From sequence record OY720014: a stretch of DNA of 64,000 nt, one strand, 5' to 3'. The DNA comes from Escherichia phage vB_Eco_QOTSP. The notes beneath the pieces are model-generated. The model did no database searches. It had not been told where the DNA came from and worked only from the letters and a program-made list of their open reading frames with translations. Below are positions 10,741 to 32,721 of the stretch, piece after piece. How positions within the stretch are numbered: position 1 is the stretch's first letter; each line of letters opens with the position of its first letter. A program made the position numbers and the translations under genes.

Positions 10741-12439
10741 TTGTGTATTGACCAGATGAAATAGAACTCATAGATGCCATTTTTTCTGTCCAATCACCAC
10801 CAACGTCCCAATCAACTGTCCCAGCAACTTTCCAAGAAAGATTTCCATTTACTGTATTAGTCTGATTTCCTTCAACTAAAGTGGTAGCATCTCCTTTAAC
10901 TGTAATGTCAGCATTACCTTCAACTACAATAGTAACATTACCTTTAACTAGGATAGTTCCATTACCTTCAACCGTCTTAGTTTCATCGCCTCTAACAAAT
11001 ATCGTATTGCTTCCATCTATTTGGTGAAGACGATTATCCATGTTGTAATAAATTTCTGATCCACCGACGTTAGTCTTTTTATCACCGGCTACCAAAAAAT
11101 TACCATCAGCATTGGTTATATCATACAAATTATCAACAGTTTTTCTTGTTCTTCTTCCTGACGGTGATACTTCTTCATAAGTTCCAGTTGGATGAACTAA
11201 TCTGTATCGTTCTTGCCCAGGGGTATCATCAAATTCCTGAATATGTCCACTTTCAGTTTCCATTGTATGCACATAAGGATATTCGCCTTTATATGAAGAA
11301 ACTGGTTCTTTGAATAAAATTCTCGAGTCATTTGGAATAGGAGGGTCAGCAGGGTCAGAAGATTTAGCTACAGTCGCAGCCATTGCCGATAAAGACCTAG
11401 CTGGAGTTTTCACTTCAACACCATATGATTCCAAATTCCCCGTAAGAATAATCATGGTAACACGGGATGCACGGCCTTTTGTTTGTTGATACCACAATGA
11501 ATCACGACCGGCTTTATATGCTTTTTCCCAATCTCCTGCTAACATAGCAGTTAACATTGTGTTAAATTTAGCTACACCGCCAACACCCATCTGAAATGCC
11601 ATATTTTCTAATGCCATTTGACGAGAACGGTTGACAGCTTGCCAGACTGGTCCTACTTTAGAATGCGATTTAATGTCACGTTGCATATCAGCCAAATCAC
11701 GCTCAAATAAAGTCGTCGCTTCTTCCATTGTAATAGAACCTGGATTTCCTGTAATTTCACGACCAACTTGTTTTGATAAAACTTTATTAATTTGAGCCAT
11801 ATCACGAACTGGCTGCTTCATGATAAGATGACCAATACCAATTGTCGGATATCCTTCAGTATCCCAATAAACTTTTAGTCTTAATCCTTCATCACGGCGA
11901 AGCATTTCAGCCATTGACATGTTTGGATTATCATCAGTTGGAATCTCTGATAGTGGTCTATCATCGGGATTTATTGCGGTGTCTAAGTTACTATCTTGAA
12001 TAACATTAGAAGAGGAATCATATCCTACTTCTCCGCCTTGGTTTAGTACGTTAGTATCATTTCCTAAACGTCTAGGATATTGCCCAGTTGGGTCAGAAAA
12101 TCCTTCAAGTCTATTCGGTTTTTCGCGAACTATTCCACCATACGTGCCAAGGACAATTCCGTTAGTTTTCCATTTGTCTAAAAAATGACCATAAACTCTA
12201 GTTCCTTCTACCGGTCCAGTAACAGAACCTCCAATTCCTGACATTGCTGCAGAAGTTATAGGTTGAATAACTGACATCCATGGTAATTTTTCAGTTGGAA
12301 TACCCATTACATCACCTTGTGCTCTTTGTGGTGGATGCAGACCAACCACACGAACACGAACACGACCTAATTTTAATGGGTCCATTCTATCTTCAACAAC
12401 ACCAACAAACCAGTTGAGGTTATTACTTATCATTTCCAT
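10712..12439 (-). CDS. 5: baseplate hub subunit and tail lysozyme gp5
   Basis: 575-aa ORF; central lysozyme domain (EGLRLKVYWDTEGYPTIGIGH) and C-terminal VxGxxxxx beta-helix repeats. Confidence 0.95.
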   Translation of the reverse strand: MEMISNNLNWFVGVVEDRMDPLKLGRVRVRVVGLHPPQRAQGDVMGIPTEKLPWMSVIQPITSAAMSGIGGSVTGPVEGTRVYGHFLDKWKTNGIVLGTYGGIVREKPNRLEGFSDPTGQYPRRLGNDTNVLNQGGEVGYDSSSNVIQDSNLDTAINPDDRPLSEIPTDDNPNMSMAEMLRRDEGLRLKVYWDTEGYPTIGIGHLIMKQPVRDMAQINKVLSKQVGREITGNPGSITMEEATTLFERDLADMQRDIKSHSKVGPVWQAVNRSRQMALENMAFQMGVGGVAKFNTMLTAMLAGDWEKAYKAGRDSLWYQQTKGRASRVTMIILTGNLESYGVEVKTPARSLSAMAATVAKSSDPADPPIPNDSRILFKEPVSSYKGEYPYVHTMETESGHIQEFDDTPGQERYRLVHPTGTYEEVSPSGRRTRKTVDNLYDITNADGNFLVAGDKKTNVGGSEIYYNMDNRLHQIDGSNTIFVRGDETKTVEGNGTILVKGNVTIVVEGNADITVKGDATTLVEGNQTNTVNGNLSWKVAGTVDWDVGGDWTEKMASMSSISSGQYTIDGSRIDIG

Positions 12440-25402: not shown

Positions 25403-26371
<969 letters not shown>

Positions 26372-29187: not shown

Positions 29188-29465
29188 TGGCTCAATTAAG
29201 TGCAGGGTTTGGTTATGAGTATTATACTGCACCTCGTCGTGTATCTGCCGCTCCTAAGAAAATTCAAAGTCTTGATGACTTCCAGGAAGTAGTCCGTAAA
29301 GCTTTCCAGGACTATGCACGTTATCTTAAAGAAGATTCACAGGACTGTCTCGAAGAAGATGAAATTGCTTACTATGAGCAGCGTCTTGAACAGCTTAAAA
29401 ACTTACATGAGGTTCGTGCAGAAGTTTCAAAGTCTATGAATAAATTGATTAGATTTAAAGAATAA
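29187..29465 (+). CDS. hypothetical small protein (positional equivalent of a T4 vs.x gene)
   Basis: ORF track 29145..29465 trimmed to ATG 29187 (TAATG overlap); 92 aa. Confidence 0.5.
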
Positions 29466-29467
29466 CT

Positions 29468-29497
29468 GTTTACTTTTCCTCTTGACTGTGGTATAAT
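29468..29497 (+). promoter_or_regulatory. early promoter (GTTTAC -35, extended TGgTATAAT -10) for regB
   Basis: GTTTAC, 18-nt spacer, TATAAT with upstream TG; CTATCAG box downstream. Confidence 0.7.
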
Positions 29498-29524
29498 TTT
29501 TCTATCAGTTAAGAGGAGAACAAC

Positions 29525-29986
29525 ATGACTATCAATACAGAAGTTTTTATCCGTCGAAATAAGCTTCGTCGTCACTTTGAGTCGGAGTTTCGTCAAATTA
29601 ACAATGAGATTCGTGAGGCATCAAAAGCAGCAGGAGTCTCATCGTTTCATCTAAAATATTCTCAACATCTTCTTGATCGTGCAATTCAACGGGAGATTGA
29701 TGAGACATATGTTTTTGAATTATTCCATAAAATAAAAGACCATGTTTTAGAAGTTAATGAATTCCTGAGTATGCCTCCGCGTCCTGACATTGATGAGGAT
29801 TTTATTGATGGGGTTGAATATCGTCCTGGACGTTTAGAAATCACAGATGGAAATCTTTGGCTTGGATTTACAGTTTGTAAGCCTAATGAGAAGTTCAAAA
29901 ACCCGTCACTTCAATGCAGGATGGCAATTATCAACAGTCGTCGTTTACCAGGAAAGGCTTCTAAAGCAGTAATTAAAACTCAATGA
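29525..29986 (+). CDS. regB: RegB site-specific endoribonuclease
   Basis: 153-aa ORF MTINTEVFIRRNKLRRHFESEFRQINNEIREASKAAG recognised as T4 RegB. Confidence 0.95.
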   Translation: MTINTEVFIRRNKLRRHFESEFRQINNEIREASKAAGVSSFHLKYSQHLLDRAIQREIDETYVFELFHKIKDHVLEVNEFLSMPPRPDIDEDFIDGVEYRPGRLEITDGNLWLGFTVCKPNEKFKNPSLQCRMAIINSRRLPGKASKAVIKTQ

Positions 29987-29993
29987 GGTAAGC

Positions 29994-30539
29994 ATGAGAA
30001 AAGCACTACTCGCTGGTCTATTGGCCATTTCAATGATGGCACATAGCTCCGAGCATACTTTCAGTAATGTCCAACTCGATAACATGCGTTACGCGTATCA
30101 ATTCGGGGAACAATTTTCTAAGGATGGAAAATATAAAACACACAAAAATATCCACAAGAGCGGATTAGGTCATATAATGGCTGCTATTTTATGGCAAGAA
30201 AGCTCTGGCGGAGTTAATTTAAAATCTAAACCAAAGCATCACGCCTACGGAATGTTCCAAAATTATTTGCCTACTATGCGAGCAAGAGTTAAGGAACTTG
30301 GTTATAATATGACCGATGCTGAAATAAAAAGAATGTTGAATAAACGGTCCAATTCAGCTTCCTGGGCGTACATTGAACTTTCTTATTGGTTAAATATACA
30401 TAAGGGCGATATAAGAAAAGCAATATCCTCTTATAATTCGGGATGGAATGTTAAAGCAGGTTCTAAATATGCTTCTGAAGTCCTAGAAAAGGCTAATTAC
30501 CTTAAAAATAATAAACTTTTGGAAATAGTAAATGACTAA
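29994..30539 (+). CDS. secreted lytic transglycosylase-like protein (SLT motifs), Vs.1-position
   Basis: 181 aa; N-terminal signal peptide; SLT-like motifs ILWQESSGG, YGMFQ, SYNSGW. Confidence 0.65.
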   Translation: MRKALLAGLLAISMMAHSSEHTFSNVQLDNMRYAYQFGEQFSKDGKYKTHKNIHKSGLGHIMAAILWQESSGGVNLKSKPKHHAYGMFQNYLPTMRARVKELGYNMTDAEIKRMLNKRSNSASWAYIELSYWLNIHKGDIRKAISSYNSGWNVKAGSKYASEVLEKANYLKNNKLLEIVND

Positions 30540-30873
30540 AATTTTGGTTTTATGTATAGGATTAATTTCATTTTCTGCGTTAGCAGATACATCATATACT
30601 GAAATTAGAGAGTATGTAAACCGTACTGCAGCGGATTATTGCGGGAAAAATAAAGCATGCCAAGCTGAATTTGCGCAGAAATTAATATATGCATATAAAG
30701 ACGGAGAAAGAGATAAATCAAGCAGATACAAAAATGATACATTGTTAAAACGATATGCTAAAAAGTGGAATACCTTAGAATGTTCAGTTGCGGAGGAGAA
30801 AGATAAAGCCGCTTGTCATTCAATGGTTGACCGTTTGGTAGATTCTTATAATCGAGGATTGAGTACTAGATGA
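30532..30873 (+). CDS. small Cys-containing protein with signal-peptide-like N-terminus (Vs-position)
   Basis: 113-aa ORF; hydrophobic N-terminus ending ALADTS; 4 Cys; T4 Vs identity by synteny only. Confidence 0.5.
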   Translation: MTKILVLCIGLISFSALADTSYTEIREYVNRTAADYCGKNKACQAEFAQKLIYAYKDGERDKSSRYKNDTLLKRYAKKWNTLECSVAEEKDKAACHSMVDRLVDSYNRGLSTR

Positions 30874-31349
30874 TTGTAAAATATATCAAGGGCGATATTG
30901 TCGCCCTATTTCTTCAAGGTAATATTATTGCGCACGGGTGCAATTGTTTTCATACTATGGGTTCAGGTGTAGCTGGTCAATTAGCAAGAGCCTATCCCAA
31001 AATTTTAGAAATAGATAAAACCACTACTGAGTACGGTTCTCGTGATAAATTAGGCGATATGTCTATTGTTTTTAAACATAAACCTAATGGTTTTGGTATA
31101 TGCTATAACCTGTATACGCAATACGAACCAGGTCCTAATCTTGATTATGGTGCTTTAGTAAACTGCATGATAGAATTAAATCTACAGGCAGAAACCCTTT
31201 TGTTTAAACCAGTAATTTACATTCCACGCATAGGTTGTGGTATTGCTGGCGGCGATTGGGATAAGGTTTCTAAATTAATCGACATGTTTACTCCTGATAT
31301 TGATTTAATAGTGGTGGATTATGAAAGTACATTACCCACATCCGTTTGA
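30870..31349 (+). CDS. macro-domain protein (predicted ADP-ribose binding/hydrolase)
   Basis: 159 aa; motifs HGCNCFHTMGSGVAG and IGCGIAGGDW resemble Poa1-type macro domains. Confidence 0.65.
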   Translation: MIVKYIKGDIVALFLQGNIIAHGCNCFHTMGSGVAGQLARAYPKILEIDKTTTEYGSRDKLGDMSIVFKHKPNGFGICYNLYTQYEPGPNLDYGALVNCMIELNLQAETLLFKPVIYIPRIGCGIAGGDWDKVSKLIDMFTPDIDLIVVDYESTLPTSV

Positions 31350-31533
31350 TCCTAAAAACAAAGTGGAAATTATTCGTCAATGGGAACGCATTTGCCGTAC
31401 TAAATGTCCAATTAATAGTCCACATGATGTAGATAAAGACTACATTGGAACATTCGTTGAATATACCTTTATTGATAAGAAAGGTCGTAAACAACATGTA
31501 GAAGAATATTGCTTAAAGGTTACATGGTTATGA
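31321..31533 (+). CDS. hypothetical protein
   Basis: 70-aa ORF. Confidence 0.5.
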   Translation: MKVHYPHPFDPKNKVEIIRQWERICRTKCPINSPHDVDKDYIGTFVEYTFIDKKGRKQHVEEYCLKVTWL

Positions 31534-31736
31534 GCCAAACTAGTATTCTTAAAAATGCCCACTGTGAAAAGTGTAAGTGGCCGGTTGTTTTTGCTTTATG
31601 CAACGATGAAATGGCTTGTGATTTCGATTATTGGTGCTATTGTTCTAATAAAGGATGCATCAATCATAAAGGTGAAGGATTTTATTCAGGATTTTATCCT
31701 TATCCTGATTTCGTTAAAGAAGGTAAACCAAAATGA
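31530..31736 (+). CDS. small Cys-rich protein
   Basis: ORF track 31509..31736 trimmed to ATG 31530; CxxC pairs suggest a zinc-binding fold. Confidence 0.5.
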   Translation: MSQTSILKNAHCEKCKWPVVFALCNDEMACDFDYWCYCSNKGCINHKGEGFYSGFYPYPDFVKEGKPK

Positions 31737-31906
31737 ATAGTTTTGAGTTACAATACGAAGTGTTACGTGAGCTTGATAATTTAATTGAACTCGCTGTTAA
31801 TAAAGGTTTTGCCATTGGAATCGGTCAAAAAGATACTGGTCATTTAACTATGGAAATATTTAAGCAAAAGCGAATTATTTTAAAACTCCTGGAAATTAAT
31901 ATATGA
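31733..31906 (+). CDS. small hypothetical protein (57 aa)
   Basis: Not in ORF track (under 60 aa); ATGA overlaps at both ends fit it between neighbours. Confidence 0.45.
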   Translation: MNSFELQYEVLRELDNLIELAVNKGFAIGIGQKDTGHLTMEIFKQKRIILKLLEINI

Positions 31907-32088
31907 GTCTGAGTAAAGAACAAAAAGATAAATTGTTTGAGCTTATCCATGAACTTCTAGATGAGCATATAGAAGCAAACACCTTTTATGATGAATACGG
32001 CCCGCTATCTCCAGAACAGCAGGAAGAATTTGCTGATCGGTTTGATAAGAAAGAAAACGAATTAATAGCTTATGTGAATACGCTTTAA
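31903..32088 (+). CDS. hypothetical protein
   Basis: 61-aa acidic ORF. Confidence 0.5.
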   Translation: MSLSKEQKDKLFELIHELLDEHIEANTFYDEYGPLSPEQQEEFADRFDKKENELIAYVNTL

Positions 32089-32097
32089 GAAGGTGAT

Positions 32098-32679
32098 ATG
32101 GCGAGTTTAATTTTTACTTATGCAGCAATGAATGCTGGAAAATCTGCTTCTCTTTTGACTGCTGCGCATAATTATAAAGAACGTGGAATGAGTGTATTAG
32201 TTCTTAAGCCTGCTATTGATACTCGCGACTCTGTCTGTGAAGTCGTTTCTCGCATTGGAATTAAACAGGAAGCGAATATTATCACAGATGATATGGATAT
32301 TTTCGAGTTCTATAAATGGGCTGAAGCACAAAAAGATATTCATTGCGTATTTGTAGATGAAGCCCAATTTTTAAAAACTGAACAGGTGCATCAATTAAGT
32401 CGAATTGTTGATACATATAATGTTCCTGTTATGGCTTATGGATTAAGGACTGATTTCGCTGGAAAATTATTTGAAGGTTCTAAAGAACTTTTGGCGATTG
32501 CAGATAAACTTATTGAACTAAAAGCAGTTTGTCACTGTGGTAAAAAAGCGATTATGACAGCTCGATTAATGGAAGATGGAACACCAGTTAAAGAAGGTAA
32601 TCAAATCTGTATTGGTGATGAAATTTATGTTTCTTTGTGTAGAAAACATTGGAATGAATTAACTAAAAAGCTCGGTTAG
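32098..32679 (+). CDS. tk: thymidine kinase
   Basis: 193 aa; P-loop AAMNAGKS, zinc-ribbon CHCGKK...C; T4 Tk size. Confidence 0.93.
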   Translation: MASLIFTYAAMNAGKSASLLTAAHNYKERGMSVLVLKPAIDTRDSVCEVVSRIGIKQEANIITDDMDIFEFYKWAEAQKDIHCVFVDEAQFLKTEQVHQLSRIVDTYNVPVMAYGLRTDFAGKLFEGSKELLAIADKLIELKAVCHCGKKAIMTARLMEDGTPVKEGNQICIGDEIYVSLCRKHWNELTKKLG

Positions 32680-32688
32680 TGCAAAAGT

Positions 32689-32696
32689 TATAAATA
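32689..32696 (+). promoter_or_regulatory. late promoter TATAAATA upstream of the rI region
   Basis: Exact TATAAATA 26 nt upstream of ATG 32722. Confidence 0.55.
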
Positions 32697-32721
32697 GGTT
32701 TATCTAACTAAAGGGGTATAT

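Follow-up and report, generated by a model that had tools for sequence, protein, structure and literature searches.

At positions 29994–31349 of the Escherichia phage vB_Eco_QOTSP sequence (record OY720014; the window referred to below is the whole analyzed stretch of 64,000 nt), three tightly packed early genes lie downstream of the endoribonuclease gene regB, raising the question of what their products do for the phage and in which compartment of the host they act. The window is that of a Tequatrovirus (T4-like phage), and the three open reading frames (ORFs), all on the + strand, are vs.1 (29994–30539, 181 aa), vs (30532–30873, 113 aa) and an allele of tk.4/adfM (30870–31349, 159 aa). A first-pass annotation made from the sequence had located them correctly, directly after regB (29525–29986), while it missed three points: all three are named T4 early genes, belonging to the block regB, vs.1, vs, tk.4, tk.3 … tk of the T4 reference annotation; the small secreted Cys protein is the product of the classical gene vs, with its cytoplasmic textbook role; and the last of them is a non-T4 allele of the macrodomain gene. 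The finding is real and mostly already known: the gene names are established, the SLT match of Vs.1 and the A1pp/macro match of tk.4 were published in 2006 (PMC1524935) and the anti-defense role of the macrodomain dates from 2025. What the present analysis adds is the Gln-type active site of this AdfM as opposed to that of phage phiKZ, the cassette-like replacement of the tk.4 allele, and the signal-peptide and four-cysteine signature of Vs. We read the locus as a T4 early block encoding an exported Vs.1, an exported Vs and an anti-DarT2 Tk.4 of a second allele class, and assign this reading as a whole a probability of roughly 0.8. The remaining interest lies in the paradoxical localization of Vs and in the tk.4 allele swap.

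The macrodomain assignment of the third gene had been proposed from the motifs HGCNCFHTMGSGVAG and IGCGIAGGDW, both of which are present in the sequence, and it is borne out by profile and structure-database searches. Pfam Macro (PF01661) matches Tk.4 with 33.1 bits (cut-off 22; 6.2e-8), and residues 22–136 (nt 30933–31277) span profile positions 2–117 of 118. Among PDB sequences, the matches comprise BT1257 (1.7e-10), yeast Poa1p (1.2e-9), SCO6735 (8e-8), the Mycobacterium tuberculosis DarG macrodomain (2.4e-5) and TARG1 (8e-3); a profile built from seven Tk.4 orthologues finds Poa1p at 1.1e-11, human TARG1 at 3e-8 and DarG at 1.3e-6. The PADLOC DarG model aligns to Tk.4 over positions 3–144 of 329 (4.2e-7; 1.3e-9 for the T4 allele), and the NCBIfam DarG equivalog over positions 2–142 of 338, at 27.8 bits against a cut-off of 250. 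The motif residues quoted for this gene and for vs.1 are more than chance occurrences, as the Pfam cut-offs are passed in both cases and the residues are invariant across seven orthologues of Tk.4 and 24 of Vs.1. Orthology of the window protein with T4 AdfM is evident from its slot between vs and tk.3 and from 57% identity over the full length (1e-69).

Within the macrodomain class, the active site of Tk.4 differs from that of DarG. When the Tk.4 family is compared by hhalign to a set of DarG and phiKZ sequences (probability 96.9), Asn25 (codon 30942–30944) coincides with the conserved Asn of the class (N22 in DarG), whereas the invariant Gln84 of the NLYTQ motif (codon 31119–31121) aligns with the catalytic Lys of DarG and TARG1. 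No Lys occurs within residues 80–90 of any of the seven Tk.4 orthologues, TARG1 Asp125 aligns with Ala126 of Tk.4, and Asn25, Gln84 and the PRIGCGIAGG loop are invariant in all seven. The closest solved relatives, SCO6735 (5E3B) and BT1257 (2AFC/2FG1), are Lys-less ALC1-like macrodomains which share with Tk.4 the Gln at the Lys position, the positioning Asn and the loop, there PRIGCGLAGG. Gln85 of SCO6735 occupies the structural position of DarG K80 and TARG1 K84, is essential and is positioned by Asn27 (PMC9411070); the equivalence of Gln84 with this residue rests on the hhalign alignment to DarG combined with the published structure-based alignment (PMC9411070). Tk.4 and SCO6735 differ in the loop following the Gln, which is approximately two residues shorter than that of DarG in Tk.4 (by hhalign) and five residues longer than that of DarG in SCO6735, in the replacement of SCO6735 Val25 by Gly23, and in that Tk.4 is encoded by a phage. 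On DNA, SCO6735 removes thymidine-linked ADP-ribose more rapidly than DarG, and it relieves cells of DarT toxicity (PMC9411070); uracil-linked ADP-ribose on RNA is a further substrate (PMC13036486), and both SCO6735 and TARG1 act on protein and RNA substrates as well (PMC9411070, PMC13036486).

The DarG antitoxin of DarTG2 (5M3I, 5M31) belongs to the same macrodomain class as Tk.4, shares the conserved Asn and is likewise directed at DarT2, but it has an FPTK motif with the catalytic Lys, a C-terminal DarT-binding domain, a darT neighbor and a length of ~330–350 aa, as opposed to the Gln and the 159 aa of Tk.4. Identification of Tk.4 as DarG itself was rejected, as it possesses neither the catalytic Lys nor the C-terminal DarT-binding domain nor a darT neighbor; tk.4 is flanked by vs and tk.3 (DUF7202), with no darT, both here and in six further phages. 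Judged from these alignments, the T4-type AdfM is best described as a stand-alone, Gln-type macrodomain of the ALC1/TARG1/DarG class which is DarG-like in action and is not DarG. The name AdfM is in use for two proteins, T4 Tk.4 (Gln-type; 159 aa in the window allele) and phiKZ gp104 (Lys-type and DarG-like), which are 26% identical. The phiKZ protein has the conserved Asn (N23) and an FPTK motif, matches DarG at 9e-25 as compared with 2.4e-5 for Tk.4, and removes ADP-ribose from DarT2-modified DNA in vitro (PMC13309987). The Gln-type and the Lys-type AdfM represent two independent recruitments, probably with different chemistry.

The first-pass annotation had guessed that the macrodomain reverses ADP-ribosylation by host defense toxins, and genetic evidence to this effect exists for the T4 orthologue in a 2025 preprint: tk.4 was the single significant gene in a T4 transposon library challenged with DarTG2, its clean knockout was sensitive, and the gene was named adfM (bioRxiv 10.1101/2025.11.20.689424). 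T4 Tk.4 resembles the window protein in position, in length class, in the invariant HGCNC, NLYTQ and PRIGxGI motifs and in the region covered by the DarG model, and differs from it in belonging to the other allele class at 57% identity. Tk.4 would thus be expected to strip the ADP-ribose which host DarT2 places on thymidines of single-stranded phage DNA, allowing replication to proceed. The predicted chemistry is of the SCO6735 type, in which the Asn-positioned Gln would orient the distal ribose for cleavage by water, and not the lysine type of DarG and TARG1.

Identity to T4 along the block reveals a mosaic. From regB through vs.1 and vs to ~35 nt into tk.4, the DNA is 97–100% identical to T4 when compared in 60-nt windows; identity falls to 43–82% at approximately 30904–31383 (+ strand), a patch limited to tk.4 and the initial ~60 nt of tk.3, and then returns to 97–98%. 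At the protein level, Vs.1 is 100% and Vs 97% identical to T4, whereas Tk.4 reaches 57% with T4, 77% with Dhakavirus JS10 and 91% with Gaprivervirus VR7; T4 and Mosigvirus Tk.4 share 85%. Conversely, VR7 is the more distant partner for the two neighbors, with 66% identity for Vs.1 and 44% for Vs. This pattern, set against that of Vs.1 and Vs, indicates two allele classes of Tk.4 that cut across genus boundaries. The window Tk.4 represents the second class, which is common to Gaprivervirus and Dhakavirus and was gained by recombination as a cassette of ~480 bp. The transfer is not a recent one from VR7, since the tk.4 DNA is merely 78.5% identical to that phage. The window allele (at least 90% protein identity) occurs in ~318 phage records, and Tk.4-type macrodomains in 2853 of 50,697. 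All catalytic-motif residues are common to both allele classes, so the same activity is expected of both. A perfect, G+C-rich hairpin of 8 bp, formed by AGGGCGATATTGTCGCCCT and then ATTTCTTC in codons 7–13 of tk.4 (30889–30907, + strand), lies exactly where the mosaic patch begins on its 5′ side and might mark a recombination boundary or act as an RNA element. Such a situation, with at least two tk.4 allele classes swapped as a ~480-bp cassette, would be expected of an arms race against a diversity of DarT2 toxins, and it offers natural variants for the study of specificity.

For the first gene of the three, the quoted motifs WQESS, YGMFQ and SYNSGW are likewise found in the sequence, and the SLT assignment built on them stands. 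Pfam SLT (PF01464) matches residues 61–154 of Vs.1 with 25.1 bits (gathering score 21.3; 1.4e-5), the envelope corresponding to a domain core at 30174–30455 (+ strand) which holds the AYGMFQ and SYNSGW motifs, and several homologues bear a precomputed PF01464. In an alignment of 24 homologues, reaching down to 41% identity, the catalytic Glu69 (codon 30198–30200) is invariant and the following Ser70 at least 90% conserved; G86, F88, Q89, N90 and Y91 of the GLMQ-type motif and Y147, N148 and G150 of the AYNxG-type motif are invariant as well. In PHROGs, Vs.1 falls into phrog_600 (unknown function), with weaker matches to lytic tail proteins and endolysins, and a phmmer search against PDB sequences gave no match. 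An AlphaFold2 model built on the homologue alignment is all-helical, with a predicted local distance difference test score (pLDDT) of 88, and the top Foldseek matches in the PDB are all lysozyme-superfamily proteins of glycoside hydrolase family 23 (GH23). The best is Pseudomonas aeruginosa MltD (E-value 6e-3, probability 1.00), and others include goose-type lysozyme, a Ralstonia GH23 chitinase (template modeling (TM) scores up to 0.63), Slt, LtgA and the P5 lysin of phage phi6.

The N-terminus of Vs.1 had also been read as a signal peptide, and a heuristic that scores K/R in the n-region, hydropathy of the h-region and small or neutral residues at −3 and −1, applied to seven phages and to controls, supports this. 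The predicted Sec signal peptide, MRKALLAGLLAISMMAHS followed by SEH, extends over nt 29994–30047 (+ strand), with K/R in the n-region, a 10-residue hydropathy maximum of 2.4 and an AHS-S cleavage site at residue 18. The N-terminus is hydrophobic in 24 of 24 homologues, with a K/R-rich n-region, a core varying in length and sequence and an AxS/AxA-type site. On this scale, the exported antiholin RI likewise reaches 2.4, as compared with 0.5, 1.6 and 1.8 for RegB, Tk and Tk.4, respectively. The predicted mature protein has 163 aa, 18.8 kDa and a pI of 9.7. Vs.1 would accordingly be made with a cleavable Sec signal peptide, reach the periplasm and cleave glycan strands of host peptidoglycan via the single catalytic Glu69, as family-1 lytic transglycosylases do. 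With these enzymes (Slt70, MltD and LtgA, GH23; PF01464) it shares the Glu-Ser catalytic, GxxQ and YNxG motifs, the all-helical lysozyme-like fold and the periplasmic location, the last two as predictions for Vs.1. It differs from them in being a minimal single domain of ~163 aa without LysM, lipobox or superhelical domains and in being expressed early by a phage, and phmmer does not pick up its remote sequence likeness to the solved lytic transglycosylases. The enzyme had been described as separate from the gp5 and e lysozymes, and both are indeed encoded elsewhere in the window: gene e at 25877–26368 (+ strand) and the gp5 lysozyme domain at 11423–11920 (− strand), respectively 96% and 43% identical to a T4 lysozyme sequence. 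Vs.1 would thereby be a third muralytic enzyme beside the gp5 lysozyme of the tail and endolysin E, and one that is dispensable in rich medium.

The Vs.1 family is found in 2045 phage records, including T4-like phages of Aeromonas and Acinetobacter, Ackermannviridae and Felixounavirus. Outside Straboviridae, Vs.1-like SLT proteins with signal peptides were seen in the Felixounavirus "finno" (1501–2049 of the locus analyzed), where the gene lies directly 3′ of rIIA-rIIB and two genes before the i-spanin gene, and in Salmonella phage Det7 (1453–2070); no Vs homologue adjoins the Vs.1-like gene in either of these two phages.

The enzymatic readings of Tk.4 and Vs.1 have to be weighed against several alternatives. 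For Tk.4, it counts against the enzymatic reading that removal of ADP-ribose by the T4 protein is inferred in the preprint (bioRxiv 10.1101/2025.11.20.689424), that the anti-DarTG2 phenotype comes from the T4 allele, that the catalytic Lys of DarG is absent, and that Tk.4 does not have the five-residue longer loop to which the high DNA activity of SCO6735 has been tied (PMC9411070). The missing Lys also agrees with the idea that Tk.4 protects mainly by binding or blocking DarT2, or by shielding the modified base, as does the observation that the catalytically dead variants SCO6735 Q85A, DarG K80A and TARG1 K84A inhibit DarT in vitro, SCO6735 most strongly (PMC9411070). Nevertheless, we find such a mode of protection quite improbable: alleles that elsewhere share 50–60% of their residues all retain Asn25, Gln84 and the PRIGxGIxGG diphosphate loop, which is an enzyme-like pattern, the match to the DarG model ends before the DarT-binding domain, and the Gln-type SCO6735 shows full activity toward thymidine-linked ADP-ribose on DNA (PMC9411070). 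A housekeeping function, as an ADP-ribose-1″-phosphate phosphatase, an O-acetyl-ADP-ribose deacetylase or an eraser of ADP-ribosylation by the phage enzymes Alt, ModA and ModB, appears very improbable, although yeast Poa1p is among the best PDB matches, many records label tk.4 "phosphatase," and SCO6735 and TARG1 are not confined to DNA substrates. Erasure of the phage's own modifications had been a further guess of the first-pass annotation, and it finds no support; the T4 ADP-ribosyltransferases modify arginine, which is not a known substrate of the macrodomain class of Tk.4. Moreover, DarTG2 sensitivity is the only phenotype of T4 tk.4 in the genome-wide screen, insertions in the gene showed no change between LB and M9 (bioRxiv 10.1101/2025.11.20.689424), and allele swapping is more in keeping with an arms race than with housekeeping.

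For Vs.1, the reservations concern the modest fold matches (the best E-value is 6e-3, none is at or below 1e-3, and TM-scores range from 0.44 to 0.63) and the composition of GH23, which also includes hydrolytic lysozymes and a chitinase. Vs.1 might instead be a hydrolytic goose-type lysozyme, a chitinase-like enzyme or an inactive peptidoglycan binder: its best TM-scores (0.53–0.63) are with goose-type lysozyme and the GH23 chitinase, the Pfam score exceeds its threshold by merely 4 bits, and phmmer finds nothing in the PDB. We regard this as unlikely, given that Glu69, GxFQ and YNxG, which are characteristic of family-1 lytic transglycosylases, persist in all 24 homologues, that MltD and Slt-type lytic transglycosylases lead the Foldseek matches by E-value, and that an inactive protein would not be expected to keep its catalytic Glu through the divergence of 2045 phage records. 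Vs.1 is probably an exported single-domain GH23/SLT muramidase, to judge from its motifs and its modeled fold, and most likely a lytic transglycosylase, the distinction from a hydrolase being one of products (1,6-anhydroMurNAc) and not of sequence.

The product of vs, 97% identical to T4 Vs (99% ungapped), poses the more difficult question of localization. It belongs to PHROG 1256 (5.2e-40), and all homologues bear a precomputed PF26829, while Pfam, NCBIfam, PADLOC and PDB sequence searches with Vs itself gave no match. Its signal-peptide-like N-terminus, noted before, is upheld by the same heuristic: the 113-aa precursor has a predicted signal peptide of residues 1–18 (nt 30532–30585) and a mature part of 95 aa and 11.0 kDa. 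The "four cysteines" noted alongside it are correct for the mature part (C37, C43, C84 and C95) and not for the total of five, as C8 lies in the signal peptide; the codons of the four, which are invariant, are located at 30640, 30658, 30781 and 30814. As in Vs.1, the n-h-c architecture with a small or neutral −3,−1 site is present, the site being of the AxA type at residue 18 (ALA-D in the window, ASA-D in T4), and the hydropathy maximum is 3.0, within a range of 2.4–3.0 for the orthologues. In these, the N-terminal 18–25 residues are always hydrophobic and K/R occurs at positions 2–4, while the sequence differs and indels are present. Signal peptide and four Cys are kept down to the orthologue of Acinetobacter phage Mokit, which is 27% identical and occupies the same slot after vs.1. 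Vs looks secreted in every phage that has it.

An AlphaFold2 model of Vs (pLDDT 83) is confident for residues 20–110 and leaves residues 1–19 unstructured, with values below 50. Helices at 20–37, 41–61, 68–84 and 89–110 form a bundle, and all four Cys lie near one of its ends. Foldseek retrieved no relative from the PDB (best E-value 1.9) and Vs orthologues only from BFVD, the next match being a phage "lipoprotein" at 0.17. The family is small, with six clusters in an index of 5.8 billion proteins and 795 phage records, a further set of 308 being reached with an Acinetobacter-phage Vs as the query, and an exhaustive HMMER search for distant homologues over 1.84 billion representatives returned seven proteins only. 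As far as these sequence searches reach, Vs is confined to T4-like phages. The candidate role of Vs as an obligate partner of Vs.1 was weakened by the Ackermannviridae, Felixounavirus and Aeromonas phages which carry Vs.1 without Vs. In Aeromonas phage 31, the slot between vs.1 and tk.4 (2356–2796 of the locus analyzed) is filled by a 146-aa predicted lipoprotein (MKKSIATLIAIGMYGC...) and a 75-aa ORF. In Acinetobacter phage Mokit (1480–3347), two further ORFs with a signal-peptide-like N-terminus (141 and 99 aa) and, after them, rI come next to vs.1 and vs, giving five consecutive genes for predicted exported proteins.

Fitness data for T4 single out vs. None of the genes vs.1, vs and tk.4 is essential in LB, where insertions hit 46 of the 52 TA sites of vs.1, whereas in M9 glucose vs is the most depleted gene (log2 fold change −2.19, adjusted p 0); vs.1 shows a log2 fold change of −0.87 (p 0.0055), which is not significant after correction (adjusted 0.155) (bioRxiv 10.1101/2025.11.20.689424). 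Mean insertions in LB liquid amount to 26.6 for vs and 22.6 for vs.1, approximately ten-fold below the neighboring non-essential genes (130–770; bioRxiv 10.1101/2025.11.20.689424, Extended Data Table 6, sheet S8). Both counts drop further in M9, of which the authors of the preprint discuss vs only (bioRxiv 10.1101/2025.11.20.689424). The parallel phenotypes could stem from polar effects of insertions in vs.1 on vs, which overlaps it.

These observations meet an established assignment. Vs is annotated everywhere as a modifier of the host valyl-tRNA synthetase (ValRS), a role that goes back to biochemistry of the 1970s (Muller & Marchin 1975, 1977, as cited in later papers). The family-wide signal peptide and four-Cys signature are not explained by this function: they are the features of a Sec-exported, disulfide-bonded periplasmic protein, which conflicts with the binding of a cytoplasmic synthetase. 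The signature suggests that Vs is exported, contrary to its cytoplasmic textbook role, and we lean toward this view with some reserve. Vs would then be a small four-helix protein whose four Cys are oxidized to two disulfides, and the textbook binding and stabilization of ValRS would be left unexplained. T4 Vs (PHROG 1256) has the same position and the same overlaps as the window protein, so that only the reading differs. The old assignment would be reopened if export is confirmed, and a literature search for Vs in the periplasm found no paper linking the two.

Several points weigh against export. It contradicts the binding of cytoplasmic ValRS that is classically ascribed to vs; in addition, the signal peptides were called by a home-made heuristic and not by a trained predictor, the depletion of vs mutants in M9 may be explained at least as easily by an effect on aminoacylation, and the four clustered Cys could bind metal instead. 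Vs may accordingly be a cytoplasmic ValRS binder whose hydrophobic N-terminus is unused or allows partial export and whose Cys bind metal or stay reduced, a view that we rate as the lesser prospect though one to be taken seriously. It has on its side the annotation in every record, the biochemistry of Muller & Marchin (1975, 1977) as cited later, and the strongest depletion of T4 vs insertions in a medium where amino-acid supply and aminoacylation matter. It does not account for an n-h-c architecture kept in every orthologue though sequence and length drift, for an N-terminus left unstructured in the model, or for neighbors that encode predicted exported proteins (Vs.1 and, in Acinetobacter phages, two signal-peptide ORFs and RI). 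Furthermore, a link between the ORF and the genetic vs locus was not found; the original 1986 record labels it only as ORF 60.9. Full-length His-tagged Vs is insoluble in the Escherichia coli cytoplasm (PMC8076793).

Going beyond export as such, Vs may be a disulfide-bonded periplasmic four-helix protein acting together with Vs.1, as its regulator or inhibitor, or serving as an envelope factor, a proposal that we advance tentatively and consider doubtful in this specific form. A precedent for a periplasmic regulator of a muralytic enzyme is T4 Spackle (gp61.3), which is itself small, helical and periplasmic and acts as an inhibitor of the gp5 lysozyme. Spackle and Vs are alike in being small helical T4 early proteins with a signal peptide and cysteines, but Spackle shows no sequence or fold match to Vs in the PDB or BFVD searches. 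If Vs did act in the periplasm with Vs.1, the M9 defect of vs mutants would be an envelope phenotype, and a 50-year-old assignment of gene function would need revision.

The surroundings of the three genes are those of other T4-like phages. A megablast search with 29400–32700 matched 758 phage records, all T4-like, with a top identity of 99.3%, to Tequatrovirus genomes. The first gene of the conserved block, regB (29525–29986, + strand), is identified by Pfam REGB_T4 (5.9e-69) and by synteny in six other Straboviridae, and the order regB-vs.1-vs-tk.4-tk.3 recurs in Mosigvirus, Mosugukvirus, Dhakavirus, Gaprivervirus and one Klebsiella phage. The genes vs.1 and vs overlap by 8 nt (ATGACTAA, containing stop and start codons) and vs and tk.4 by 4 nt (ATGA, again stop and start), an arrangement consistent with translation of regB-vs.1-vs-tk.4 from one early transcript. 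Just 5′ of regB, a sigma-70-like element (TTTACT-17-TATAAT with TG; 29469–29497, + strand), identified as a consensus match in a region where such matches are no more numerous than in shuffles, is likely the early promoter of this transcription unit. T4 tk.1 has no counterpart in the window. Conversely, two ORFs at 31509–31906, between tk.3 and the tk.2 orthologue, have no counterpart in T4; one is 57 aa long, and the other, of 75 aa, matches the "Phage zinc binding domain" of Pfam (PF23895, 3.3e-29) and corresponds to the RB32ORF111c-type genes of Mosigvirus and Dhakavirus.

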